A stretch of DNA of 64,000 nucleotides, taken from contig CALVTP010000004.1 in the NCBI GenBank assembly GCA_944362765.1, positions 2,250-66,249 of the forward strand. The letters are read 5' to 3'. The notes beneath the pieces were generated by a model. The model was given only the letters and a program-made list of their open reading frames with translations. It ran no database searches and was not told the origin of the DNA. This DNA is from an uncultured Clostridia bacterium (lineage in GTDB: Bacteria; Bacillota; Clostridia; Christensenellales; DTU072). The position numbers and the translations under genes are program-made. Of the stretch, positions 48,934 through 64,000 are shown piece after piece (positions within the stretch are counted from its first letter, which is position 1; each line of letters opens with the position of its first letter).

Positions 48934-49020
48934 TCTCTTCGGTCGTTCGGAATATTATAATTGTATAATGTGTACGCGTGTGTCCGTGCGGGTGCGCGCG
49001 TACAGGGAGGGTATTTAAAA

Positions 49021-49656
49021 ATGGTTGAACAAGCCGCAAAACTCCGCATACTCGACTGCTGCAAAAAGCTTTCGGAGCATCAGTTGACGGCTCCGGGTGA
49101 TGTTGTCAGCGTAAGAGCCGAGGGCGGAATGCTTATTACGAACCCCGAAACCGAGATGTCGTCGATTACCGAAAACGACATCCGTTTTGTGGGGAGAGAT
49201 GAGGCGAAGGGCACGCAGGAAGCACTGCACCTTGCAATTTACGCCCATCGTGAAGACATCAACGCCGTAATCATGAACCATGCGCCGTTCTGCGTAGGGA
49301 TAGCTAAAAGGCTGAAATCGTTCCCCGCAACTCTGGACGACATGGCGCAGATAATAGGGCATACCGCCAAGGTCTCTCCGTCCGAAGAAGCGACCGACAT
49401 TTTAAGGACGCTTACCGGAAGGAACGCCTGTCTTATCTCGGGCGGCGGCGTAATCGCCACGGGAAGGACGTTGGACGAAGCTTTTACCGGCTCTTTGGTG
49501 CTCGAAAAAGGCGCATTATGTTATGTCGGTTCCGCCATCATCGGAAAACCCGTAAAGATAGGGCTTTTCGACGCCGTTTTGATGAGAGCGGTTTACAAAC
49601 TGAAATACTCCAAAAAAGATCAGGCGGCAAAACTCAAAGAGGAGCAGGGAGGCTGA
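49021..49656 (+). CDS. class II aldolase/adducin-fold protein lacking Zn ligands
   Basis: LHLAIYAHREDINAVIMNH and ACLISGGGV: the HxH and NHG motifs are eroded. Confidence 0.75.
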   Translation: MVEQAAKLRILDCCKKLSEHQLTAPGDVVSVRAEGGMLITNPETEMSSITENDIRFVGRDEAKGTQEALHLAIYAHREDINAVIMNHAPFCVGIAKRLKSFPATLDDMAQIIGHTAKVSPSEEATDILRTLTGRNACLISGGGVIATGRTLDEAFTGSLVLEKGALCYVGSAIIGKPVKIGLFDAVLMRAVYKLKYSKKDQAAKLKEEQGG

Positions 49657-49657
49657 T

Positions 49658-50296
49658 ATGACGGAATCCGAAGTCAGGCAGGCGGTAAAGGACGCCGGCG
49701 TTAAATTACTCGAAAACAACCTCGTTCAGGGCACTTGGGGAAATATCTCGATACGCCTTAGCGACAAAAAGATGGTGGTCACTCCTTCGGGCATGGACTA
49801 TATCCGTATGCGTCCCGAGGACACCGTCGTCGTGGATATAGAAACATTGGAATACGTGTCCGAAGTAAAACCCACTTCGGAAAAGAAGATACATGCCGCC
49901 ATTTATCGCGATCGTCCCGAGATAGGCGCGGTTATCCACTCCCACCCGTTGTGGAGTTCGGCAGCCGCTGCGGCAAGGAAGGAGATCCCTGTGCTCTGCG
50001 AAGAGCATAAAAGATTGCTGGGCGGCGACACCGTCAGGGCGGGCGCCTACGGGCTTCCCGGCACTAAGAAGCTGACAAACGGCGCCGTAGAGGCTATGAA
50101 GGACAGGAACGCATGCTTTTTGTCCAATCACGGCATAGTTTGCTGCGCCGAGACGATAGAGGGCGCTTTCGAAGTCTGCAAGGCGATGGAAGAAAACAGC
50201 CGTGCTTATATAGAAAGCGTTGTAAAACGGGAACTCGGAAAGGATTCCGTCGATATCGACGATATCTTTGAAGTGTTTTATAAACGGATAAATTAA
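49658..50296 (+). CDS. class II aldolase (fuculose-phosphate aldolase-like)
   Basis: GTWGNIS, TPSG, PTSE..IH, IHSHP, SNHG intact. Confidence 0.9.
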   Translation: MTESEVRQAVKDAGVKLLENNLVQGTWGNISIRLSDKKMVVTPSGMDYIRMRPEDTVVVDIETLEYVSEVKPTSEKKIHAAIYRDRPEIGAVIHSHPLWSSAAAAARKEIPVLCEEHKRLLGGDTVRAGAYGLPGTKKLTNGAVEAMKDRNACFLSNHGIVCCAETIEGAFEVCKAMEENSRAYIESVVKRELGKDSVDIDDIFEVFYKRIN

Positions 50297-50312: not shown

Positions 50313-51938
50313 ATGGAAGGAAAGATGAGCTTTGCTCAAAAACTCAATGCGTTTTCCCATAAGCTGTTCGGAACAAAACCGAACGACGGGGACGTTCAGC
50401 CGAAAGAGGCTTGGAGCTACGGTATAACGGGTATCGGACAAAACTTTATTTGTACCGTTATAGGTTCGTATCTGACCGTTTTTATGACGGACGCGTTGGG
50501 ATTCAACAACGACATAAAACTTGGTACATTGACAGCGTCGGTCGCGGTGGCGATATTGATGTTGGTCGCCAGAATATTCGACGCGTTGAACGACCCGATT
50601 ATGGGCTCCGTAGTCGACTACACCCGTACCAAATGGGGTAAGTGCCGTCCCTATCTTTTGTGGATGGCTATTCCTATCGGTTTATTGACGATATTATGCT
50701 TCCTGCCCGTTTATCCGAGGGATATGGAAGGCTTCCTCGCCTGCGGACTTATCTATGTAGTGTGGTCGGTGGCGTACACGATAGCCGACGTTCCGTATTG
50801 GGGATTGTCCACCACGATGACGAACAACACCACAAAGCGCGGCAATATTCTGACAATAGTGCGTCTTATGTGTACGGCGGGAGCGGGTATCGTCACCATC
50901 TTCGTCCCGATTATCACCGATGCCGTCACCGCCGAATTTAAAAATTCCGACGGCTATGTACTGGCACAATATGCGGATCAATACAGAAATACGCTGCAAT
51001 GGACGTACTTTATTATAGCAATAGTTCTGGTTGTCATTTCAATCCCGATGTTCTATATCGGTTTCAAAAACACCAAAGAGCGCTTCGGAACGATACAAAA
51101 CGGAGAAAAACCCCGTTCGCTCGGTAAAAACCTCAAATTATTGTTCAAAAACGACCAGGTCATGCTCGTCGTTCTGTCGGGTATACTTGGCGGTGCGAGA
51201 ATGGTGTATACATATACCGGCGGATTGTATTTTTGCAAATACGCGTTGGGCTCCGAATCGGCGTACAGCATTCTGACAATGCTGGTCATTCCGGGCGGAT
51301 TGATAGCTTCGGTATTGTGCCCGTGGCTCACCAAAAAATTCACCAAGAAATGGTCGTTCATCGGCTCGCATATTCTGGGAGCAGCCGCAATGGTATTGAT
51401 GCTGTTCATGTGGGACTTCGACAACGGTAAATTCATCGGCGGCGGCGAAGTCGGCACGGCAGGGCTGGTGGTCGCGGTAATCTGCATGATAATCGTCGGT
51501 ATCCCGCAAGGTATCGCCAATATCATGAGTTACGCAATGATAGGAGACACAGTCGAATACCTCGAATGGAAGACCGGCGAGAGGGCGGAAGGTATCTGCT
51601 TCTCGATGCAGACATTTATTTCCAAGATAGGCATGGCTGTCGGCGCTTTCATCGGTGTCCTTGCTTACAATATGAGCGGTATAAGCTCCGATGACCCCGT
51701 CGGCTCTATGACGATTGAAGGCTTGAACGACTTGTGGCTGATGCTTGTTCTGTCGAGCGCCGTAAGCTTTGTCGCTTGCGTTATCCCGCTGTTCTTCTAC
51801 CACATCACCGAGGATAAACAGCGCTGGTACGTCGGTGAGATAAGAAAAAGAAAGATAGCTTCCGGCGAACTTGCAGCCGAAACCGCCGGAGACGCCGAGA
51901 ATGTCGAAATGACGGTCGGCGAAGACAATAACGATTAA
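50313..51938 (+). CDS. glycoside-pentoside-hexuronide (MelB-like) MFS symporter
   Basis: RIFDALNDPIMG..VD.TRTKWGKCRPYLL, YTIADVPYWGL, DTVEY.EWKTG.RAEG. Confidence 0.9.
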   Translation: MEGKMSFAQKLNAFSHKLFGTKPNDGDVQPKEAWSYGITGIGQNFICTVIGSYLTVFMTDALGFNNDIKLGTLTASVAVAILMLVARIFDALNDPIMGSVVDYTRTKWGKCRPYLLWMAIPIGLLTILCFLPVYPRDMEGFLACGLIYVVWSVAYTIADVPYWGLSTTMTNNTTKRGNILTIVRLMCTAGAGIVTIFVPIITDAVTAEFKNSDGYVLAQYADQYRNTLQWTYFIIAIVLVVISIPMFYIGFKNTKERFGTIQNGEKPRSLGKNLKLLFKNDQVMLVVLSGILGGARMVYTYTGGLYFCKYALGSESAYSILTMLVIPGGLIASVLCPWLTKKFTKKWSFIGSHILGAAAMVLMLFMWDFDNGKFIGGGEVGTAGLVVAVICMIIVGIPQGIANIMSYAMIGDTVEYLEWKTGERAEGICFSMQTFISKIGMAVGAFIGVLAYNMSGISSDDPVGSMTIEGLNDLWLMLVLSSAVSFVACVIPLFFYHITEDKQRWYVGEIRKRKIASGELAAETAGDAENVEMTVGEDNND

Positions 51939-52023
51939 AACAGGTTTCCGAAACTTCGGAAAAGGGAACCCTAAACAGCATTTAACATATACCTGCGCTG
52001 CAAGGCGCCGGGTGGAGGAGAGT

Positions 52024-53385
52024 ATGTGTAAACGTAAAAAATTGACCAGGGCAGAGAGACTCAGAAGAGAATTGGTCGAAGACCACATCAAGACCAGGCG
52101 CGAAATGTTTGAAGACAGAGCCCGGCTGAACAGGCACGTGTTCCGGTACGGCGCGCCGCCTCCCGGCTCGGTGCTGTATGACGAGCATCACGATATGTCG
52201 GCGGCAAACGGCGTCTTCGTGAACGGCAGACAGAAGGATGCGCTTACGGTAATACGTCCCTCCGGCAGGGGTTATGAAGACATCGGAACGGGAGCCTACA
52301 ACACCGAAAAACCGGATTTTTATCGTGTGGCTCTGGCAGGGCGTCCCTACGAACCGGTCTTCCCGACCGCGGAGTCGAAGAAGTTCTTCATCGGCTGCAT
52401 TAAAAGGGCGCTGCCGCTCTTTCCGATAGAGACGGAAAGCTATTCGATTCTCGCGAATTCGGCGTATTTTGTCTTTGCGTCGTACGACCAAACAAGGATA
52501 AGTCTGCAGCGCTTCGTTTCGTTGGTTATCGAAACTTATGCCGACTATTACAACGAGGCTTTCGGGCATTCGGGTACTCCGTTCAGGGGGAGACCCGAAT
52601 TGAAAAAGCTGGATAAGCTCGAAGAGATTGCCGACCAGATAACCTTGGTTCAAAGGCAGCCGATAGTGCGCGGACACCGCCCGGACTATCCCTTCTCTTC
52701 GATAGGCGAAGGCGAGGGCGGACTGACAAGCACAACCGCGTTCAACGATCGCTTCGGCGCCGCAGGCAAGAAGGCGTTGCAGGAGGCAAGTACCGAGGAG
52801 TATTCCAAGCTTCACGCCGTCGACCTTTCTACCAGGCTGTTCGGTTTGAATCCCCGCCTCACCGAAGTAATCGAGGAAACGCTTATCGATTACGGCTGCT
52901 TTACCAAGCGCGCAATGCCCAATTTCCTCATGCCTAAGGTCGTTGCCGAAGTCAACGAGCGCTCCGGAGCCTCCTTCAAAAAGATTTCGCGGAAAATGGG
53001 CGGCGGCTGGCGCACCAGGTATGAGCTTCTGGTCAAAACCATTTGCGAATTGATTATCGAGTCGAAGCGCACGTTCGACTACGCCTGGCGCACTTTGCAG
53101 GTGGAAAAGTACCAAAAACGCCCCGTCGCAATCGACGTTGCCGAGGAGCTTTTTGATCGCCTCGGCTACTCGATAGACCAAATCTTCCAAATGATGGGTT
53201 TTGCTTATTGCGCCGTCATCAACGGCACCGTCCAATACTATAATGAAGATCTCCTAGTTCGTTTGATAAAGGACTACGCCTTAGAGCACAATTGCCCCGT
53301 CACGAAGGTTATAGAGTTGTTCGGCATCCGTAACTCCCACGAAGATCCCCAAAGGGTACTGCGCGTCTCTTCTTATTTTATGTAA
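52024..53385 (+). CDS. catalytically degenerate Y1 HUH (IS200/RAYT-like) transposase-fold protein with tandem HTH-like repeats
   Basis: Manual alignment to the RAYT pattern over 52318-52704. NHxH reads NSAY (52456-52467), YNxxxxRxGHLFQGR reads YNEAFGHSGTPFRGR, RYIHxNP reads TLVQRQP, and DYxWSS reads DYPFSS. RBS GGAGG precedes ATG 52024. Confidence 0.75.
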   Translation: MCKRKKLTRAERLRRELVEDHIKTRREMFEDRARLNRHVFRYGAPPPGSVLYDEHHDMSAANGVFVNGRQKDALTVIRPSGRGYEDIGTGAYNTEKPDFYRVALAGRPYEPVFPTAESKKFFIGCIKRALPLFPIETESYSILANSAYFVFASYDQTRISLQRFVSLVIETYADYYNEAFGHSGTPFRGRPELKKLDKLEEIADQITLVQRQPIVRGHRPDYPFSSIGEGEGGLTSTTAFNDRFGAAGKKALQEASTEEYSKLHAVDLSTRLFGLNPRLTEVIEETLIDYGCFTKRAMPNFLMPKVVAEVNERSGASFKKISRKMGGGWRTRYELLVKTICELIIESKRTFDYAWRTLQVEKYQKRPVAIDVAEELFDRLGYSIDQIFQMMGFAYCAVINGTVQYYNEDLLVRLIKDYALEHNCPVTKVIELFGIRNSHEDPQRVLRVSSYFM

Positions 53386-53937
53386 TTTTCTTCCCGCAAG
53401 ATTAAAGTTAGAGAACTTTAATTGCTCGCTTGAACAAAGCCTTATGGAAAAGTTCGTACCCCGTACGAGCTTTTTTCATAAGGAAGGATTAATTGCGGGA
53501 AGAAAATTACATACCCGCGGCTTGGGGCATATTTCACGGCGCTTTCGGGCAGGACAGGAGCGAAGCGACTGTCCGTTTTGGAGCCAACTCTTATAATACC
53601 GAAGAGAAGGAAGAGATATCGTCTTAGAAAGATAGATTTTGCGGCGGAGTGACGAAATGAGAGAGCGGCATACGACGTATGCCGCGAAAGATATTTCTAT
53701 ACTCCGCCACAAAAGATAATTTGTAAGGCGATAGAAATTTCTTCGAAGCGGTATTATTTTGATTAAAGTGGGGTACTATAAGCCAATATAGAGACAGCAT
53801 AGGGCATTATTCAAACAAGCTTTAGTTGAAGAAGCTCTTACAAGAAGAAATATTATTTATTGAATCGGTATGCTATAATTTCCGCATGAAAACAAATATA
53901 AATCTGAAAATTAATTCAAAAAACTCAGCAAAAACTA

Positions 53938-53966
53938 TTGCAATTTATCCCCAATTATGATATAAT
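53938..53966 (+). promoter_or_regulatory. sigmaA promoter P1 with no downstream ORF
   Basis: TTGCAA, 17 bp, TG-a-TATAAT, followed by TATAGGGGA. Confidence 0.75.
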
Positions 53967-54517
53967 TATAGGGGACGGATACGGATAATCGATAAGCTCT
54001 CGTTCCGTCGGCTCGAAGGGTGTTTGCCCTTGGGGCAAACACTTGGGCTACGCACTTTTGCTACCACAAAAGTGCGCGCCCGCGCTCGCTCGAATCGTGG
54101 CAGAGTCGTTAATATCGTGGCAGTTTTACATCACAAGGTAGTCGCTTCGCTTCGATTAGACTAGACCCACCCAACCGCCCACAAGTTTGCCGCTATGCGG
54201 GATAGGAATATTAATATTAGTATACGCATACCGCTATCCCCTTTCGCGTTCTCATGGCGATAACATCACACAAGGTTGCCGCTACGCGGATGATGGGGAA
54301 TATATAAGCTATAATTTGTTTTAACGCATTACGATATTCTTTCAATTCGCTTATATACTGGCGATATTACATTTCAATGTGTTTCTTCGCTCCGATATGA
54401 TTTAACTATATAAGCATATGGAATATTATTGATATAACAAATCATTTTAATTATTTAATTTCAGCAGGAAATTAAATATAAAATCGAAAATTATATCAAA
54501 TAATTTAACAAAAAGTA

Positions 54518-54546
54518 TTGCATTTTTAGGCATAATGTGATATAAT
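54518..54546 (+). promoter_or_regulatory. sigmaA promoter P2, paralog of P1
   Basis: TTGCAT, 17 bp, TG-a-TATAAT, followed by TTAAGGGGA; 580 bp downstream of P1. Confidence 0.75.
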
Positions 54547-54644
54547 TTAAGGGGATAGGGTTGCGATTACCGCCGAGGGGCGGAAGGTTTGGTGTGCGCA
54601 CTTTGCCGGGCTAAGCTGCGCGGCGGGTGTCTGCTCGAATCGTG

Positions 54645-54918
54645 GCAGAGTCGTGAGTATCGTGGCGGTTTTACGGCGTTGTTTGTGAAGTAAGGCAGAG
54701 TGGTGGGTATCATGGCGGTTTTATATTTTTGTTCAAATCATAGCTAAGTTTTTAATATCCTGGCAATCTTACGGCGCTATTGTTGTAATAAGTCATAGTC
54801 GTAAGTATCGTAGCTGTTTTACGGCTTTTTCGGTAAGATACAGCATGGTCGTAATAAGCATGGCGTTCTTATTATCTTTTAAATCTTTGCGTAGTCGTGA
54901 TACATTTAGCAATTCTAC
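54645..54918 (+). repeat. degenerate ~50-bp tandem array, about six units
   Basis: Core TATCGTGGC variants start at 54658, 54708, 54756, 54806, 54856 and ~54902. Confidence 0.7.
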
Positions 54919-56133
54919 ATCACAAGGTGGTCGCTTTGTTCCGAGAAGACTAGACCCACCCAACCGCCCACAAGGTTGCCGCTGCGCGGGATAGGAATAT
55001 TAATATCAGGATACGCATATCGTTATTCCGCTTTCGCATTCTCATAACTACATCTTTCCACAAGGTTGCCGCTGCGCGGATTGGAAATATAAAATAGTCA
55101 TGCTGTTATTCTGTATTTCCATTACAGCAGTTTTCCTCAAGGTTCCCGCTTCGCGGATAAGTGAATGGAAAATAGGTAATTAGTTCAAGTACTCCTATCG
55201 GTGAAGCCTGCTTTACCGTTTATTATAGCAAATTTAATATATTTATAATACCCGGCTATATTTCAATAATACCGCTTCGAAGAAATTTCTATCGCCTTAA
55301 AAATTATCTTTTGTGGCGGAGTATAGAAATATCTTTCGCGGCATACGTCGTATGCCGCTCTCTCATTTCGTCACTCCGCCGCAAAATCTATCTTTCTAAG
55401 ACGATATCTCTTCCTTCTCTTCGGTATTATAAGAGTTGGCTCCAAAACGGACAGTTGCTTCGCTCCTGTCCTGCTACGCGGGTATAATTTTCTTCCCGCA
55501 TCAATAGCTCCTTATGAAAAAAGTCCGTACGGGGTACGAACTTTTCCATAAGGGTTTGTTTTAACGAGCAATAAAAGTACTCTTACTTAAATCTTGCGGG
55601 AAGGGCTACAACCGACCAAACTCTCACTATAAAATACAGCCGTTGAGATGTAGACGAGCGTGTAAACTGTGAGATACGGAGCGGATTGGGGCAAGCAAAA
55701 GACAAAAGCTGTTTGAGTAGACTAAAGTCGGGATTGCGTTAGTTTGCGGCGAAGCAACCGGCGGAGGCGATGAAGCCTCTACCGGTTGCGATTTCGTGCG
55801 AAATTGGCGAAGGGCTGTATCGACATACGCTCCGAGGCAACTCCCGAAGGGAGGGAACTTGTTCCTTTCGCTCGAAAGCGCCGTGAAATATGCCCCTAGA
55901 CGCGGGTATACTATAATTTTCTTCCCGCATTAATAACTCCTTATGAAAAAAGTCCGCACGGGTGGCGAACTTTTTTATAAGGGTCTGTTCTCGCGAGCAA
56001 TTATAGTTCTCTTACTTAAATTTCGCGGGAAGAAAATTATAGTAAAATATATATTATATATACGCGCGCGTATGATAGAATGAGATACGGAGAAGTCTGC
56101 CCAAAACTTCTCTCAACTCATTCAGAGGTAAGT

Positions 56134-59100
56134 ATGAGAAAGAAGAGTATTATTACGATTATTGCGATTTTGGCTATGGCGGTGACGGCGCTTATTTGTC
56201 TTTCCGCCTGTGAAGAGGAATACAATATCGATCACCTTGAGATCTATTCTTCGCCGAGGACGGATTACTTTGTCGGAGAGGAATTTGATTATTCCGGTGC
56301 TTCGATAAGGGTAGTCTACACAAACGGCACCGATCGCATAGTTCAGGTAGACGGCACCATGATTTCTTCTTTCGATTCTTCTGTTTTGGGCTCGCAATAC
56401 ATAAAGATTTATTATCGGAACCACAGCGTTTCCGTGAAGGTCAACGTCAACCGTTACGCTACCGCATCCAGCGCGCTGGAAATTCCCGACACGAATTACA
56501 ATCTTATAGAGGGGCAACCGCTCAATCTAAATGATTCTTATTTGCTGATAACTTTTGAGGACGGCTCCGTTCGGCGCATCCCGATAACCGAATCGATGTG
56601 CTCCGGTTACGACGCGGGAAGAGTGGGCTCGCAGGACATCAACGTCAGCTACACCTTCCCCGACGGCGAGGTTGTCAACGTTTCGTTCAGCGTCACCGTA
56701 GAGGAGCGGGCGATAGAGTCGGTTTCGATACAGACTCTTCCGGACAGGAGCATATACTATCAAGGCGATCGCGAAGTGGCGCTTGAGGGCGGCGAACTCC
56801 ACGTCGTATATAACAACGGCTACACCGAAAGGCTTCCCATGGTGACGGGCGGTGCTCTTCTCGAAGGGTTGGAAGTGGTCTCTTTCGATTCCTCCGTCGA
56901 GAGCGGTTCCGTCAAGGTTGCGCTGAGGTATTACAATTTCGACATAAGCTTCAATGTTTCCGTCGAAGAGCGCGACATAAGGTCATTCGTCTTTGACAAA
57001 GACGCCATTCCCGTTCAGCTGGAAGACACCGCGCTGAATCTGGACGGAATGCTCTTTTCGATAACGTACACCAACGATGAGCAGCTCCTTCTCGAAGCGG
57101 GAGACGAAAACTTCGGCGACTATATAGATATTCGCGGATACGATCCTTCTCGGATCGGCACGCAGGAGCTCGTTATCAGTTTCCTGTACGGCGGAGTTGA
57201 ATTGGCTACAAAGTGGACGATGTCGGTCACGGTCAGGGAGCGCTCGCTTACGGAAATCGGTGTGTCCGGAACCAATCCGGTCATATATCTCGGCTCCGAC
57301 TACGAGCTTAACGAATTCAACCTGGAGCTTCGCTACGACAACGGCAATATCGACTTAAAAAGCCTTGCCGATGACTCGGTAAGGGTTGTCGACGTTACCG
57401 GATCCGGTCAACCGGAAGAAGTTACGGGATCCTTTGTCTATTACGAGCATGCCGACAGGGTTTGGAGAGTGGTCTATACCGAAACCGACGCGGAAGGAAC
57501 GGTTACGGAGTACGAATGCGAACACACCTTCGAGGTGACTATCCCCGCAGTCGTCTCCCATGAATTTTCGGGTTACGACGCCGAGGGCTCGTTGGTTTAT
57601 TTCGAATACGTCGACGGAGAACCTCGCTTTACCGCGTTCGCGGACGGGCTGAAATTGAAACTTACATATAATTCCGGCGTCGAATTGACGAGGGAACTCG
57701 ATTCTCTTTCGGGCTCCGGCTACGAAATAGAAGTGTCGACAGCGGCTGAAAGCGCAGGAAAAGCCACAGCCGACCTGACTATTATCGATATATACGGAGC
57801 CGACAGGGCGGAGTACACGATAGAAGGCGTCGACGCCTATGTAGCGCGCACCATCGAACGGGTAACGGTGACGGCGGCGGAGACATTTGACTGCCATCTT
57901 GTCCCCGAGGACACTTTCTCCGACCAAGGACTTACCGTCGAGGTCAAATACCTTGACTCCGAGGAGATCACATACTCCCTTCCGGATCCCGACTTCTACG
58001 CGGCGTTTTATTTCCTTTCGGAGGGTGCCGTCGATATCGCGGGCGGCATATTGATGTTCCCGGAGGAAGGGGGATACCTTGTCACCGTGGGTTCTGCCGA
58101 CATTACCGAAAATACCGAGATAATCTACCCCGGAAACTCCGATGAGGGCGGCATTGCGATCACGGTCGACTCCCTTCCCGATTCCGTCATCGGCGTATAT
58201 ACCGACGACAATGGCTTGAACGAAGTCGGCATGAGTTCGTCGGAGCCCGGAATCAACGTGCCTTACGGCACCGATATTCCGTTGGATAAGTATTATCTCG
58301 GCGTAAGATACACCGGGAAGAAGGACGGCGCCGAAATAATAAAATATTTCCCGTTGTCCGACAAACGGATAGAAGTTTCTTCGACCAAAGAGATGGGGAC
58401 CGGACCCAAAGAGATAACGATAACCTTCGAGGACGAAGGGAAGAAAATCTCTTCCGAAGGCTACTATGTTTACGTAAGCGACAGGGTGCCTGTCGGTATA
58501 ACGGTCACTTTGCCGAAGACGGTGTTTTACTACTATCCTAACAACGAAATAGAGCAGCCTTCCACAAGCGGAGTTATCATCAGAGTAAACTACGATAACG
58601 GCACGTTTGAAACCATTGCATATACCGACGCCGAAGGCAGCGTTGTTTTGACAAACTACAGTTGGTCGAATGACTTGTCGGAGCGGGAGCAGGAAGTGAC
58701 GATAACCTACTCGACGGAGGGAGTCGTCCTTCAGACGACGGCGACAATTTATCTGAAAGAAGCGATGCCGCAATCGATAACGTGGGGTTCGGGTACGGCA
58801 ATGTACGCCACGATAGGCGCCGGCGTTGAATTTTCTTTGGAAAACCTTTCTTATGCCGTTATCGGAAGTGACGGCGAATATATCACTCAACAAGACACTA
58901 TCGTCGAGAAAACGATCACTGCCACCTACGAAACGCCGAACGGTCTGTACTACAGCACGGAAACGGTGCGCGATATTCTTGATGAAATCACCTTCGACCC
59001 CGCGTCGTTCAATTCCAATTCTCTTGTGGCGCAGGGGGTAAGGCTCAGCTATCTCGGCTGCACATTCACGATAAACGTCAAGATAATTCATGAGAGTTCG

Positions 59101-62100
59101 CTTACCTCCGTCACGATGAATACGGAACGTTTTTCGGTTATACGAGGCGGTACGATAGATATCAACGAGCTTGTCCTCAATCTCCATTTCGGCGAACTTG
59201 TCTACCAGGTACCGATGAGAGAGGAATATTTCGTCAAAGCTGCCGACCTTCAGGCGGACGAGCAGGGCGAATTGACCGGCATCGACGTTATCCTGCACCC
59301 GGACACAACGCCCGCTGAGTACAAAGCCAAGGTATCCTATACCTACAATGGCGTCACCTGCACGACAGAAGTCATCGTAGAAGTTCTGCAAAGAAAACTC
59401 ATCGAGATTCAATTCATGAACGTCAAGACGGAGTTCGTGGAGCACGAAGAGTTCGAAACGGGCGACGGCAGCTATATTCTGGCGATTTACGATAACGGAA
59501 GACAGGACGTCGTCTACCTTACGGACGCCGTGATCTACGACGGAAGCGACAATCTGACGAACGATAGTTTCTATGTGGACATCCGCAGCTTCGACAATTC
59601 CGAGATAGCTTCGGGCGGCAAGGTCAAGCAACAAGCCATCACCATATACTATACCGACAACAAGGTCTCCGGCGGCGAGTCGGCAAGTGATACTTATATC
59701 ATTTATATGCGCGACAGACGTTATCCGACGGTGACTTTCACACCGGATAACGTTTTCGAACGCACATATAAAGATGAAGGTGCGTCGAATCCCGTCAGCC
59801 TCACGGTGACGGGCTATCGTAACTATTCCGATGAAGGAAAGGATTTCCAGCCATGGAACGGCGAAGGCGAACCCGACGTCTACGAATACGAACTGTATTT
59901 CATCGGCGAGGACGGAACGGAATACGGCTCAGGGCGCGACGTGAAATTCCCGATAAATGCCGGCGTTTACGACATAGTCGTCCGTTATAAGGGCGACCCG
60001 CTCCATAACCCGATAGAGGTGCATTCGGAGACCCCGCTGACGATATTAAAGCGGTCGCTGACGATAACTTTCACCGACGAGAAGTTTGCAAGCGTCACGT
60101 CCCTCGAGAAAATTTACGGCGAAGCTACCGAAAAGCTGTATGTTTCGATATCGGGCTTGGCTGAGGGCGACGGCTATGAAGCTGTCTATGGCACTTTGCA
60201 GGATAATTGTTTAACCGTCTATCCCGAGGATTATTCCGCGGGGCTCAGCATATTCGATATAGCTTATCTTGATCTGCGCGGCAACGTCGTCGGCATGGAA
60301 GACAGGACGGCGGCAGGGATTTACGAATTGGCGCTTAACCCGAACACCGACAAGGTTTCAGTAAACTACGAAATAGTCGTTAAAGGAATTTATTACAACA
60401 TCGAGAAGCGCCCCGTCGAGGTGTATGCCGATTCGATAGAAGTCTCTTACGGCGACCCGGTGCCGCGGCTGACGTTCACTTACGAAGAGGATATCGGCTA
60501 CGGACGAGGAGTGCTTGACGGCGAGACGTTAAGCGGCGAATTGAGAAGAGAGTCCGGTTCCAACGCCGGAGTGTATCCGATAAACGCAGGTACGCTTTCC
60601 TCCTCCAACCCCAATTACGACATAGAATTTTACGAAGGAGCCGAAGTCACTCCTCCCACCGTTACCATTGTCGCAAGGCAGATTTATATCCGCATCGTAA
60701 CCGATTCGGTGATATACGGTACGGAGTACGTCGCGCCCGCCGTCATGGCGGAGTATTTCCGTGACGCCGCTCTCGAAGATTCCGAAAACGTCTTTGCCCA
60801 AGCGGATATTGCCGCCTACGGCGACGATCCCGAAGACATTTTGGGTGAATTGACGATAATTTATCGGCTGAACGGCGAGCCAGTAGCGGAGCCGTGGAAA
60901 CAAGGCGTGAACGAGTACGAGGTCGGGGGCGAATTCCGCTCGGCAAGCGATTTGGTCAGAAACAATTATAAGTGGGAGTTTGTCTTCGGCAGCCTGACGG
61001 TCACCAAGAGGAATGTCTCGGTTGAAGTATTGTCCGTCAGCACGGAGTACGGCATTCCTGTCGGCGAAATAGCGTTTGAATATAGGGTGGAAGAGCAGGG
61101 CGAAAACTCCGGACTGATGAAAGGCGACGAGCTGAGACTTAAATTCGGTGTGGCAGGCAGTGAAGACGAAGATATCCTCGGCTATGGCGCTCATTCCATC
61201 GAGCAGATCGTAACGGGTGAGGAAAACGCCAACTACGAACCGATCATAAGCTTTGCTACGCTTACCGTAACCGCGAAAGCGCTGGGTGTACGGATAGACG
61301 CGTCGGCGCTGAGTAAAGATTATGACGGGAAAATGCCTTCCGTTTCATACTCCTCGGAATATATTTCGTTTTTCGACGACGGCGAACGGTTTGACGACGG
61401 GAAGCTGACGGCGGAAGCCGGCTCGGCGCTCAGAGTAAATATTTCCGGTTCCTCGGCGAATGCGGGAAGCTATGCCGTGACGGTGAGTTCGGGAAGCCAA
61501 AACTTTACGTTCGAGCTCGAAGAAAGCGTGAATTTCGTCATAGATCCGCTTGAAATCGGCCTTACGGCGGATGACTACTACTATTCTCCGGAGGGGGACG
61601 AGTATTTCAAACTTAACGGGGCGGAGCTCGTTTATTCCGGTTTCGGATATTCGATTTCCGCACGCATACCCGAAGCCACTTCAGACGAAAACGGCAATTA
61701 TTTGCCGAATGGGCTGCAACCCGTCTACAACGCGTCCGGGACTCCCGCGACAGACGACGACAACAACGTCATATTCGATTCCGTCGTGGTCACCGTAACA
61801 TTAGGTTCCGTCACCAATGCCGGGGAATACACCGTGAAGGCGACGGCGTTCAGCAACAGAAACTACACTCTTACCGACGCCGAGGAGCTCACCTTTAAGG
61901 TAGCTAAAAAAGAGGTGACGGTCTATTTCAATACGTCCGGAGCCGACGAAGGCGCGCCGAACACCATTGTCCGTCAATACACCGGCGAGCCGCAGCAATT
62001 CATCCGCGGTTCCTACGAAGGCGGCGAAGTCGTAAACGGCGATTATGCGCTTACCGATGACTCGGTCGGCACGGTGACGGTAGTGCTCGAACGCAACGGC

Positions 62101-64000
62101 GTTGCCTACACCGACGCACTTCAGGATGTCGTATACGATGCCTCCGGAAATCCGTTGGTTTACGACATTAAAGTGGTGTCATCCTTGGACAGCAACTATG
62201 ATTTGAAGACAGCGGAGGAGTATAAGTTTATCCTCAATCCGCGCTCGATAATATTGAAAATTTATCCGGACGCGCTGACGATGGAGTATAACGGCGGCGC
62301 TCCCGGGAAAATCGAATCGTCTCTGTTTGATATAGTCTATGGCAGCGGCGCGGACGCTACCGACGCGGGCTTTGAAAAGAGCTGGGTGAACTTTATATAC
62401 TCCAGAGAGGATAACGACTATCGCTCCGGCTCCTCTGTGGGCACATATTCCATATCCGTATCGGTGGAAGACAAGAACTTCGAGGTATCTCTGGACTCCG
62501 TTTACAAATTGAGCATAACGAGAAAAGAATACAACTTCTCTCTTTCCGACAGTTCCCCCGAAAAGCAATATGACGGCGCGGGTATAGAGTTCACCAGAAA
62601 CGACGTCACTTTAAACATTCCGTCGAACTTGGATTTCCCGAGCATCCGTACCTTTGCTTACGACAGAATAATGTCCTCCGAAGGAGAAAACCGGTTTGTC
62701 AATCTTATGACGACCGCCGATGACATGCTGAGTGCTATAATCACGGCATACTTTGACGTGAGCGCAGCTTTCAACACAAGTACAAGTATCGGGGCTGTCG
62801 TCGAAAACGCGGAAGCGACGAAGAGGGAAGTCGAAGAGCTTCTCGCTCATTTCACAGCGGACGAAAATCGCGACGCGAGCCTTTTGATGAACGGCGACGC
62901 ATTGAGGGCAAGCCTCGTTACCCTTTCAGAGCGTCTGGATGCGATTGTGGCTGCCGCCGGCGCCGGCGGCATGTCCGATATCCGCAACGCGATGACGGCG
63001 TTCGAAACGGCGCTCGGTAACTTTGTGGATATATTCGACGAAGAAAACTACTACATGATCTTCGTTCTGGGCGAGGAAGGCACCTCGGAAATAAGCGGAA
63101 CGGGCGAGTATCCCCTCCACATCTATGCCAACGACTTCAACCGTGAACTTGTAGACCTGAATGCCGCAAGCGGTTATATTGTCGAGATAACTCCGAAAAT
63201 TCTGGAAGTGCAGATCGGGCACGACGAAGGGTACACCGGTCCCGTGGTTGTCGATAAAGGCAATGTCATAGCGGAGTACGGCGATGTTCCCGCGAACGCT
63301 TCGGAAGAACCCTTTATTCCGTACAGAATATACGACCCCGTCAGAGGCGAATATCTCGAAAGGGTGGGTGAGTACGACGAGGAGAACTACAACAATACAT
63401 CGACGGAATACTACTTCCGCTACAAAGGCGAAGAAGAAAATGTCGTCTATATTTACGGAAACCTGCATAAGGCGGCAGGCACGGCTATTAGCAACTACCC
63501 TGTGCTGCGCGGCACCCTCAAAGTCTATACGGACGCACAGCATAATACCGAAAACGAAAACGCAAACTACCAATTGACATTCAATGTAGGCAGCTACATC
63601 GTCTCCCGCCGCGCAATCACGCTGCGGTTCGAAGGGGATGAAACGACCACAGACGGCGAACCGATCATTCGGAGCGGAGTCAGTTACGGCGGATTGCTGG
63701 CGAAGAACAGCGGAAGCGTCTGGAGCGAGAAGCTTAAACTTGCCGACTTACCGTACAATGAATTACCGTACAATGAAAATATAGAGGACTTCAACTATGC
63801 CGATATTTCGTACACCTGCTATATCAACGGCAGTAACGCCATTAACAGTACGGCAACCGCCGCAGGTATTTTCGAGTTGGAAGCTTCTTTACCGGGTTCT
63901 GCCGCTCCGAACTATTCCATCACGATCCTGCCCGCGAAAATCAAAATAGAAAAGGCTCAGCTCAGAATGGGCTACACCGTTTCGGGCGCTACCGAAATCG
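56134..64000 (+). CDS. giant (>2600 aa, truncated by the window) lipoprotein with Big_3-type and MBG-like repeats
   Basis: ATG 56134 gives MRKKSIITIIAILAMAVTALICLSAC (lipobox), then PRTDYFVGEEFDYSGASIRVVYTNG. Spot translations in the same frame at 60001, 62701 and 63901 are open and repeat-like. It is absent from the ORF track, consistent with no in-frame stop in the window. Confidence 0.9.
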   Translation, partial: MRKKSIITIIAILAMAVTALICLSACEEEYNIDHLEIYSSPRTDYFVGEEFDYSGASIRVVYTNGTDRIVQVDGTMISSFDSSVLGSQYIKIYYRNHSVSVKVNVNRYATASSALEIPDTNYNLIEGQPLNLNDSYLLITFEDGSVRRIPITESMCSGYDAGRVGSQDINVSYTFPDGEVVNVSFSVTVEERAIESVSIQTLPDRSIYYQGDREVALEGGELHVVYNNGYTERLPMVTGGALLEGLEVVSFDSSVESGSVKVALRYYNFDISFNVSVEERDIRSFVFDKDAIPVQLEDTALNLDGMLFSITYTNDEQLLLEAGDENFGDYIDIRGYDPSRIGTQELVISFLYGGVELATKWTMSVTVRERSLTEIGVSGTNPVIYLGSDYELNEFNLELRYDNGNIDLKSLADDSVRVVDVTGSGQPEEVTGSFVYYEHADRVWRVVYTETDAEGTVTEYECEHTFEVTIPAVVSHEFSGYDAEGSLVYFEYVDGEPRFTAFADGLKLKLTYNSGVELTRELDSLSGSGYEIEVSTAAESAGKATADLTIIDIYGADRAEYTIEGVDAYVARTIERVTVTAAETFDCHLVPEDTFSDQGLTVEVKYLDSEEITYSLPDPDFYAAFYFLSEGAVDIAGGILMFPEEGGYLVTVGSADITENTEIIYPGNSDEGGIAITVDSLPDSVIGVYTDDNGLNEVGMSSSEPGINVPYGTDIPLDKYYLGVRYTGKKDGAEIIKYFPLSDKRIEVSSTKEMGTGPKEITITFEDEGKKISSEGYYVYVSDRVPVGITVTLPKTVFYYYPNNEIEQPSTSGVIIRVNYDNGTFETIAYTDAEGSVVLTNYSWSNDLSEREQEVTITYSTEGVVLQTTATIYLKEAMPQSITWGSGTAMYATIGAGVEFSLENLSYAVIGSDGEYITQQDTIVEKTITATYETPNGLYYSTETVRDILDEITFDPASFNSNSLVAQGVRLSYLGCTFTINVKIIHESSLTSVTMNTERFSVIRGGTIDINELVLNLHFGELVYQVPMREEYFVKAADLQADEQGELTGIDVILHPDTTPAEYKAKVSYTYNGVTCTTEVIVEVLQRKLIEIQFMNVKTEFVEHEEFETGDGSYILAIYDNGRQDVVYLTDAVIYDGSDNLTNDSFYVDIRSFDNSEIASGGKVKQQAITIYYTDNKVSGGESASDTYIIYMRDRRYPTVTFTPDNVFERTYKDEGASNPVSLTVTGYRNYSDEGKDFQPWNGEGEPDVYEYELYFIGEDGTEYGSGRDVKFPINAGVYDIVVRYKGDPLHNPIEVHSETPLTILKRSLTITFTDEKFASVTSLEKIYGEATEKLYVSISGLAEGDGYEAVYGTLQDNCLTVYPEDYSAGLSIFDIAYLDLRGNVVGMEDRTAAGIYELALNPNTDKVSVNYEIVVKGIYYNIEKRPVEVYADSIEVSYGDPVPRLTFTYEEDIGYGRGVLDGETLSGELRRESGSNAGVYPINAGTLSSSNPNYDIEFYEGAEVTPPTVTIVARQIYIRIVTDSVIYGTEYVAPAVMAEYFRDAALEDSENVFAQADIAAYGDDPEDILGELTIIYRLNGEPVAEPWKQGVNEYEVGGEFRSASDLVRNNYKWEFVFGSLTVTKRNVSVEVLSVSTEYGIPVGEIAFEYRVEEQGENSGLMKGDELRLKFGVAGSEDEDILGYGAHSIEQIVTGEENANYEPIISFATLTVTAKALGVRIDASALSKDYDGKMPSVSYSSEYISFFDDGERFDDGKLTAEAGSALRVNISGSSANAGSYAVTVSSGSQNFTFELEESVNFVIDPLEIGLTADDYYYSPEGDEYFKLNGAELVYSGFGYSISARIPEATSDENGNYLPNGLQPVYNASGTPATDDDNNVIFDSVVVTVTLGSVTNAGEYTVKATAFSNRNYTLTDAEELTFKVAKKEVTVYFNTSGADEGAPNTIVRQYTGEPQQFIRGSYEGGEVVNGDYALTDDSVGTVTVVLERNGVAYTDALQDVVYDASGNPLVYDIKVVSSLDSNYDLKTAEEYKFILNPRSIILKIYPDALTMEYNGGAPGKIESSLFDIVYGSGADATDAGFEKSWVNFIYSREDNDYRSGSSVGTYSISVSVEDKNFEVSLDSVYKLSITRKEYNFSLSDSSPEKQYDGAGIEFTRNDVTLNIPSNLDFPSIRTFAYDRIMSSEGENRFVNLMTTADDMLSAIITAYFDVSAAFNTSTSIGAVVENAEATKREVEELLAHFTADENRDASLLMNGDALRASLVTLSERLDAIVAAAGAGGMSDIRNAMTAFETALGNFVDIFDEENYYMIFVLGEEGTSEISGTGEYPLHIYANDFNRELVDLNAASGYIVEITPKILEVQIGHDEGYTGPVVVDKGNVIAEYGDVPANASEEPFIPYRIYDPVRGEYLERVGEYDEENYNNTSTEYYFRYKGEEENVVYIYGNLHKAAGTAISNYPVLRGTLKVYTDAQHNTENENANYQLTFNVGSYIVSRRAITLRFEGDETTTDGEPIIRSGVSYGGLLAKNSGSVWSEKLKLADLPYNELPYNENIEDFNYADISYTCYINGSNAINSTATAAGIFELEASLPGSAAPNYSITILPAKIKIEKAQLRMGYTVSGATEI

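Follow-up and report, generated by a model that had tools for sequence, protein, structure and literature searches.

Gene organization of the locus

The window analysed here was a 64,000-nt stretch of contig CALVTP010000004.1 (assembly GCA_944362765.1), and the subject is a plus-strand gene in it which encodes a descendant of a Y1 transposase of the HUH type with its catalytic residues replaced (called the dead-Y1 gene below). The source was a 1.7-Mb metagenome-assembled genome in 68 contigs, from an uncultured Clostridia bacterium of the chicken gut, genus Ca. Stercoripulliclostridium. A nest of repeats followed the gene, and then came a giant gene for a surface lipoprotein (Table 1).

The open reading frame (ORF) of 453 aa ran from ATG 52024 to TAA 53383-53385, according to the ORF list and to the sequence read directly. 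An earlier reading made from the letters and the ORF list (the sequence-only reading) had described an intact frame with a good ribosome-binding site, and both were borne out, with GGAGGAG lying ahead of the ATG. The same GGAGGAG-AGT-ATG layout was present in an orthologue (L005), and the alternative start GTG 52012 was unlikely because the orthologues began at the equivalent ATG. The gene was present in one copy in its own genome. Its upstream intergenic region was 85 nt long and had no match to the downstream region. In addition, a 1.7-kb contig in a metatranscriptome assembly spanned 51787-53405 with 98.8% identity, which suggests that the gene is transcribed.

Relationship to Y1 transposases

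No match was obtained when the single sequence was searched against Pfam, NCBIfam, PHROGs and the PDB sequences. A PF01797 (Y1_Tnp) match above the gathering score was absent for the 453-aa protein, with nothing even at E<=10, and the deeper clade members P0012, P0015, P0020, P0025 and P0026 were likewise without a PF01797 match. A 10-sequence profile also found no match among the PDB sequences. The profile of an alignment of ten close homologues (A1) was then run against 1.84 billion representative proteins and gave 1532 relatives; those of about 250 aa carried Pfam Y1_Tnp, some of them together with a sub-threshold helix-turn-helix (HTH). The homology was visible only through a family profile or a structure model.

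The AlphaFold model of the 453-aa protein had a mean predicted local distance difference test (pLDDT) score of 74.7, with a block of about 72-91 over residues 95-232. Its best PDB match by Foldseek was E. coli TnpA-REP (4er8_A), with an E value of 3.8e-4, a template modelling (TM) score of 0.68 on the target and a root-mean-square deviation of 2.5 A over 137 columns. Ranks 2-23 were occupied by more than 20 chains of IS608, ISDra2 and IS200 TnpA (including 2vic, 2a6m and 2xqc). The family was also aligned by hhalign with 30 active Y1+HTH proteins (A3), giving a probability of 99.6% and an E value of 9.3e-25 over 236 aligned columns. Residues 95-232 showed the Y1 fold in the model and in the hhalign alignment, that is, a four-stranded sheet with helices and alpha-D over beta2/beta3.

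The pairings of motifs with active Y1_Tnp proteins agreed between MAFFT and hhalign, and every in-register pairing with the Y1/RAYT pattern that had been drawn up from the sequence alone was reproduced. FYRVALAG stood opposite FYHVMvqG, VFPT...K..F opposite IF.....K..Y, SYSILANSAYFVF opposite AYCIMxNHxHLL, YADYYN...SGTPFRGR opposite YAxYYN..RVGxVFRDR, LVQRQP opposite YIHxNP, and DYPFSS opposite Yx(x)SS. The resemblance to Y1_Tnp proteins is far beyond chance, and the protein descends from a class-2 Y1 (TnpA-REP/TIRYT-type) HUH transposase. The sequence-only reading had already proposed a Y1/RAYT-type origin and had looked to PF01797 and Foldseek for its recognition; the origin was recovered by Foldseek, with 4er8 first and the IS608 and ISDra2 TnpA chains after it, and by the family profile, meanwhile the direct PF01797 match failed. 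Its label of RAYT/IS200 type held for the Y1 ancestry and needed correction for the subtype, as the closest active relatives were Y1+HTH proteins of subclass 2.1 (TIRYT) and not RAYTs flanked by repetitive extragenic palindromes (REPs) or IS200.

Loss of the catalytic residues

In HUH enzymes the two histidines bind the metal and a single Tyr is the nucleophile. In the 453-aa protein S146 (codon 52459) and Y148 (52465) occupied the columns of the HUH histidines and L208 (52645) occupied that of the Tyr, exactly the S, Y and L that the sequence-only reading had placed there, while H, H and Y were present in those three columns in 105 of 157 representative relatives. The Asn of Y---NP is the third metal ligand of class-2 Y1 enzymes, N119 in E. 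coli TnpA-REP (PMC6006769, PMC3479197), and this position was taken by Q212 (L208---Q212-P213). Neither the HUH His pair nor the catalytic Tyr and metal ligand of Y---NP could be found in the protein. All 21 orthologues of the genus had N-[SRGA]-A-[YF] at the HUH motif and [LIVS]-[VIA]-x-x-Q-P at the catalytic helix, so the loss of H, H and Y was consistent among the orthologues, and it extended to the rest of the dead clade. None of the outcomes that the sequence-only reading had named as refuting it was encountered. HUH chemistry is predicted not to operate, because the metal ligands and the nucleophile are all gone, and the protein would then be unable to nick or join DNA.

In a FastTree phylogeny of the 157 representatives (143 columns), the 36 without the His pair all fell to the same side of a branch whose local support was 96%, and a few deep members of this clade retained a single His or the Tyr. 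Such a pattern is expected from a single ancient inactivation at the base of the clade, with further erosion afterwards; the clade has since diversified inside one family of gut Clostridia.

Other parts of the domain were conserved. The class-2 serine motif, which has been described for TnpA-REP subclasses 2.1-2.3 (PMC6006769), was retained, and its Y222 and S226 were invariant in the family (alignment A1). The clade had also gained invariant motifs of its own, AYN, FPT and ASYDQT. In the last of these and just after it, A152, S153, D155, Q156, T157 and S160 were invariant in A1, and the 'DQ' was retained across most of the dead clade and absent in active relatives.

Distribution and selection

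The gene was found in one copy in all 22 genomes of the genus, in 68 of the 81 genomes of the family and in 15 of its 17 genera, with open frames in all but two cases. In an order-level sample of 251 genomes, strong matches were limited to the family, except for one shorter match from a different family (E 2e-19, a frame of 263 aa). Approximate pairwise dN/dS values (Nei-Gojobori) fell between 0.02 and 0.16 overall, and between 0.03 and 0.15 when the Y1-like domain was taken alone, and in an orthologue comparison the protein identity was 95% at a proportion of synonymous differences (pS) of 0.57. These values point to strong purifying selection on the gene.

The behaviour was that of a RAYT-type gene in one respect, as a host gene inherited vertically, in one copy per genome and at a constant syntenic place (22 of 22 genomes). 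Terminal inverted repeats bracketing the gene, a feature of subclass 2.1/TIRYT, were absent at the window locus. It is well supported that this is a domesticated host gene, neither mobile nor decaying, because it was single-copy, syntenic and intact across the family with low dN/dS; the retention proposed by the sequence-only reading, with dN/dS below 1, was in agreement with this.

Table 1. Positions of the features at the dead-Y1 locus, numbered along the window.
Feature	Coordinates	Strand	Basis or remark
Ribosome-binding site GGAGGAG	52014..52020	+	ahead of ATG 52024; read directly
Coding sequence, predicted nuclease-dead Y1/TnpA-REP-like protein, 453 aa	52024..53385	+	ORF list, orthologues, dN/dS
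N-terminal basic segment, residues 1-45, 15 K+R, isoelectric point (pI) 11.1	52024..52158	+	low-confidence long helix (AlphaFold)
Y1/HUH-fold domain, residues 95-232	52306..52719	+	AlphaFold, Foldseek, hhalign
Former HUH motif, now S146-A147-Y148	52459..52467	+	active relatives N-H-x-H
Clade-specific motif ASYDQT..S, residues 152-160	52477..52503	+	just past former HUH strand
Former catalytic helix L208-V-Q-R-Q212-P, replacing Y-I-H-x-N-P	52645..52662	+	alignments, hhalign
Retained class-2 serine motif DYPFSS, residues 221-226	52684..52701	+	aligns with Y..SS
C-terminal all-helical region with one small beta-hairpin, residues 233-453	52720..53382	+	separate AlphaFold model
Basic HTH-like segment, residues ~301-336, pI ~10	52924..53031	+	hhalign
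135-nt palindromic interspersed element with terminator-like inner hairpin	53379..53513	.	overlaps stop codon; outside conserved gene system
Nest of multi-copy repeat modules, 2.65 kb, non-coding	53386..56032	.	between dead-Y1 gene and giant-gene promoter; lineage-specific
Conserved giant-gene promoter and leader: extended -10 TATGATAGAAT, stem-loop GGAGAAGT/ACTTCTC, Shine-Dalgarno (SD) sequence AGAGG	56033..56133	+	comparison with relatives
Giant Big_3/MBG_2 surface lipoprotein gene, >2622 aa, runs off window	56134..63999	+	Pfam Big_3, MBG_2

Domain architecture outside the Y1 core

Two stretches were basic by charge, residues 1-45 and residues 301-350. The N-terminal one was found in only part of the genus (A1). 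In the C-terminal one the hhalign alignment reached column 315, where MPKVVAEVNERSGASFKKISRKMG was paired with the 'LS..QIA..' HTH of the active Y1+HTH proteins (A3). One HTH was supported in this way, giving the Y1 core plus C-terminal HTH layout of subclass 2.1; Pfam gave only sub-threshold HTH hints, and a relative (P0031) had weak matches to HTH_11 and HTH_28.

The last 218 residues were modelled separately by AlphaFold with a pLDDT of 81.8, and in an alignment-wide Pfam scan of the C-terminal region only sub-threshold matches to HNOB, RH3/Arc-like and HTH_23 appeared. A version of 750 aa with a long insert between the Y1-like and C-terminal parts was encoded in another genus of the family (L049 7884-10136, genome G058). 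In a search for fusions that could give a functional clue, the sole extra of this version was a sub-threshold Ribosomal_L11_N-like match near its N-terminus, which was uninformative.

The neighbouring giant lipoprotein gene

The giant protein began with a lipoprotein signal having the lipobox LSAC. Synteny was strict throughout the genus, in the order Big_3 protein, class-III aminotransferase, two class-II aldolase-like genes, MFS_2 transporter, dead-Y1 gene and giant ORF. The aldolase-like pair (48961-50296) stood beside the transporter genus-wide, and the Pfam match of its first gene was far weaker than that of the second (E 7e-18 vs 1e-46).

In all 18 genus loci that extended far enough, the giant gene came immediately after the dead-Y1 gene, and in genera g6, g7, g8, g11, g12, g14 and g16 a giant ORF in the same orientation likewise followed it directly. 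The giant ORFs of the other genera had 1285 to more than 2900 codons and in most cases continued past the end of the fetched sequence; they were homologous to the giant gene of the window with E values from 1e-137 to 1e-30, and the genes further upstream varied. In genus g2 the order was reversed: a homologue of 336-377 aa came about 20-50 nt after an ORF of 1583-2568 aa, followed by uvrC, and the match between these giant ORFs and the giant gene of the window (E 1e-8 to 1e-15) ran through the Big_3 region at the N-terminus. No clue to function is better than this adjacency, which has outlived a change in the order of the genes. The sequence-only reading had not noticed this conserved partner.

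Between the two genes, the roughly 100 nt at 56033-56133 were the sole intergenic part conserved with relatives. The leader stem-loop (56084-56112) was located directly before the SD sequence, and its stem had compensatory changes among species. Two types of leader stem could be distinguished (L005, L020-L038), one subclade having the GGAGAAGT/ACTTCTC type with a (T)ATGCCCAAA loop and the other ACGCGCG-TGGG-GCGCGT. A (C)GCGCGCG spacer tract upstream of an extended -10 (TATG.TA.AAT) occurred at 56060-56078 of the window and at C1:112510, C2:72395, C4:31477, C6:48433, C23:8671 and C48:3229 in the same genome.

Palindromic repeats beside the gene

The 135-nt element over the stop codon had ends that were perfect over 16 nt (TAATTTTCTTCCCGCA...TGCGGGAAGAAAATTA), and further copies lay in the window at 55485-55603 and 55914-56040. 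In the 1.7-Mb genome 95 near-full copies and 113-116 matches were counted, and its 15-nt terminus occurred 152 times, vs 2 times for the reversed control. Beyond the conserved ends, 3-4 bases differed from copy to copy and stayed mutually complementary, and 23 copies were within 600 nt of contig ends. Among the other genomes of the family, only 2 of 80 had the element, with 1-2 copies each.

Behind the stop codon lay the 2.65-kb nest, in which each module had 17-90 BLAST matches elsewhere in the genome and the read depth was 10-30 times that of the flanks. Counterparts of the nest were absent in the orthologous intergenic regions, which were 64-989 nt long; in relatives an ordinary terminator hairpin was present 3' of the dead-Y1 gene. 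Similar nests were seen on contigs C2, C16, C17, C24, C30, C44 and C60, and near-full copies elsewhere numbered 19 for the 210-nt module and 27 for the 308-nt module (55604-55911). Two 210-nt arms (53549-53758 and 55265-55474) were 99% complementary and flanked 1.5 kb, and their reading as a dedicated invertible switch was weakened because they belong to a dispersed repeat family. The sole strand-switching join among three runs connected two copies of the 135-nt element, from 53405 to 55588 (run X17). In addition, units at 53876-53975 and 54456-54555 were 75% identical, with a promoter-like TTGCAA-N17-TATAAT layout followed by GC-rich hairpins and iterated CACAAGGTTGCCGCTNCGCGGAT; they had no ORF and no Rfam match at the gathering threshold, and had copies elsewhere in the genome.

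An intact IS200-type Y1_Tnp ORF was identified in the same genome (C34:35-391, 152 aa, at the contig start), together with a stop-disrupted copy (C7:7728-8068); a copy of the 135-nt element (C7:8727-8854) was about 660 nt from the disrupted one.

The 135-nt element was rejected as the conserved partner of the gene, being species-specific. A REP/REPIN family flanking the gene in each lineage, as would be expected of a RAYT, was not seen in a comparison that covered this element and the orthologous loci: the element had no match in 78 of the 80 other family genomes, and no such repeats were found at orthologous loci. The repeats were a recent species-specific invasion of the intergenic region and are not the conserved ligand of the protein. 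The sequence-only reading had suggested nicking and binding assays on the neighbouring hairpins; as a species-specific burst without counterpart at orthologous loci, these are probably not the substrate.

Proposed role of the protein

The most probable reading, at roughly 0.6, is a domesticated, nuclease-dead class-2 Y1 descendant that binds nucleic acid and acts as a local regulator of the giant lipoprotein gene. The retained Y1 platform, the basic HTH and, in this species, the basic N-terminal helix would together give sequence- or structure-specific binding of nucleic acid, and hairpins or single-stranded DNA may be bound. The action of the binding protein would be local, and most probably devoted to regulating the expression of the neighbouring giant gene. 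Its target would probably be in the conserved promoter or leader of that gene (56033-56133), as DNA or as RNA, and not in the species-specific repeats.

Several points weigh against this regulatory reading. No target site was identified, and the binding role rests on inference. The Y1-like domain itself was near neutral (pI 6.2), and the C-terminal part of about 220 residues resembled no known DNA-binding fold, Foldseek finding nothing significant among PDB or BFVD structures, where the best E values were 0.24 and 0.63. The CGCGCGCG tract in the promoter spacer was considered as an operator and rejected; the same tract with the extended -10 stood before NuoE-like, TilS-like, HD-phosphohydrolase-like and glycosidase-like genes (names from reading of the translated ORFs, without database matches), so the GC-rich spacer tract is probably a general promoter feature, being found before unrelated housekeeping-type genes too. 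As the whole region, including the upstream sugar-metabolism cluster, was syntenic, infrequent rearrangement could explain part of the adjacency to the giant gene. Genus g4 was an exception, its neighbour being a 1193-aa Metallophos protein, and in genus g1 a terminator lay between the dead-Y1 gene and the giant gene, and the former may share a transcript with the MFS transporter upstream of it. For most pairs dS was near saturation, which makes the dN/dS values approximate, and the metatranscriptome support consisted of assembled contigs, while contigs of RNA libraries can include DNA.

A more speculative form of the same idea, to be held only tentatively, is that the dead Y1 domain was exapted as a hairpin reader at the giant-gene promoter or leader. 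It would recognise the non-template strand of the open complex or the nascent leader RNA, and would license transcription or bring about antitermination or stabilisation of the 8-12 kb mRNA.

The dead Y1 domain could instead bind RNA or protein, for example a leader stem-loop of the 8-12 kb giant mRNA with an effect on stability, antitermination or translation, or the protein could serve as a cytoplasmic partner of the lipoprotein. The Y1 fold, which resembles the ferredoxin/RRM platform, recognises single-stranded hairpins (PMC3479197), the stem-loop with compensatory changes lay directly before the giant-gene SD sequence in all genus members, the Y1-like domain was not basic, and adjacency to the giant gene was found in both gene orders. 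However, leader stem-loops are common protein-free 5' stabilisers in Firmicutes, two unrelated leader-hairpin sequence types existed inside the genus, and DNA is suggested by the retained HTH, a homologue of the one in the active transposases. On balance an RNA or protein ligand is unlikely, though it should be kept in mind.

The protein might also be a non-cutting reader of the roughly 100 dispersed palindromic elements, forming a RAYT/REPIN-like pair with them. A perfect-ended 135-nt element over the stop codon with two more within 2.7 kb, the 95-113 copies in 1.7 Mb and the outermost bases that vary yet stay complementary would all fit such a pair, as does the usual state of RAYT genes, which occur in one copy, are inherited vertically and have REPs on their flanks (PMC6006769). 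But the element was present in 2 of 80 other family genomes whereas the gene was present in 68 of 81, none of the orthologous intergenic regions contained the nest, REPs are lacking around the subclass 2.1 relatives (PMC6006769), and the intact IS200-type Y1_Tnp of the same genome could move hairpin elements. Such a role is improbable.

Even less can be said for the protein still being an enzyme, with a new active site made from the invariant AYN, FPT and ASYDQT. New invariant polar motifs did appear beside the former HUH strand and purifying selection on the Y1-like domain was strong, but all four HUH-type catalytic or metal residues were gone, a clade-wide invariant Tyr, His or Cys substitute was absent in the catalytic helix, and the new motif was only partly conserved in deeper branches. 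A decaying insertion-sequence remnant, which the missing Pfam match and the lost catalytic residues could suggest, was effectively refuted by the comparative data, with frames intact in 68 genomes at dN/dS 0.02-0.16, one fixed locus across genera and no terminal structures conserved between species.

Significance and comparison with known systems

To our knowledge, the domesticated Y1 transposases known so far are active nucleases (RAYT/TnpA-REP). A description of a conserved nuclease-dead Y1 clade was not found in full-text literature searches, and the main phylogenomic survey dropped sequences without HUH or Tyr as presumably non-functional (PMC6006769). Here a whole clade has lost the catalytic residues and kept the fold under strong selection over family-level time, which gives a clear bacterial example of a pseudo-enzyme made from a transposase. 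It may give a handle on the control of the largest surface proteins, here a giant adhesin-like lipoprotein, in gut Clostridia, and as a natural 'binding-only' HUH scaffold it may be of interest for HUH-tag engineering.

The nearest active relatives, TnpA-REP subclass 2.1/TIRYT, are proteins of about 250 aa with Y1_Tnp and a C-terminal HTH like Bac_DnaA_C, HTH_23 or HTH_28, and have no REPs in their vicinity (Quentin et al. 2018, PMC6006769). The dead-Y1 protein shared with them the Y1 core, YAxYYN, G.VF..R, Y..SS, the C-terminal HTH and the lack of conserved REPs nearby. Unlike them, which keep N-H-x-H and Y-I-H-x-N-P, the dead clade had S/Y/L/Q at these positions, and the protein added about 95 N-terminal and about 120 C-terminal residues, had no PF01797 match and was encoded at a fixed chromosomal locus beside the giant lipoprotein gene.

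E. coli TnpA-REP/RAYT (YafM; 4er8), the best structural match, is likewise a single-copy, vertically inherited, 'domesticated' Y1 protein. It has H59, H61, Y115 and N119, is active as an Mn2+-dependent, auto-inhibited nuclease, and acts on the REPs that lie on either side of it (Messing et al. 2012, PMC3479197), whereas the dead-Y1 gene had neither the catalytic set nor conserved flanking repeats. With IS200/IS605 TnpA (IS608, ISDra2; PF01797) the fold was common; unlike the dead-Y1 gene, those elements are mobile, and their TnpA proteins are about 150 aa long and dimeric with trans active sites and a Y---Q context. The dead-Y1 protein was not classed as a transposase, because on the same scaffold the defining catalytic features fail.

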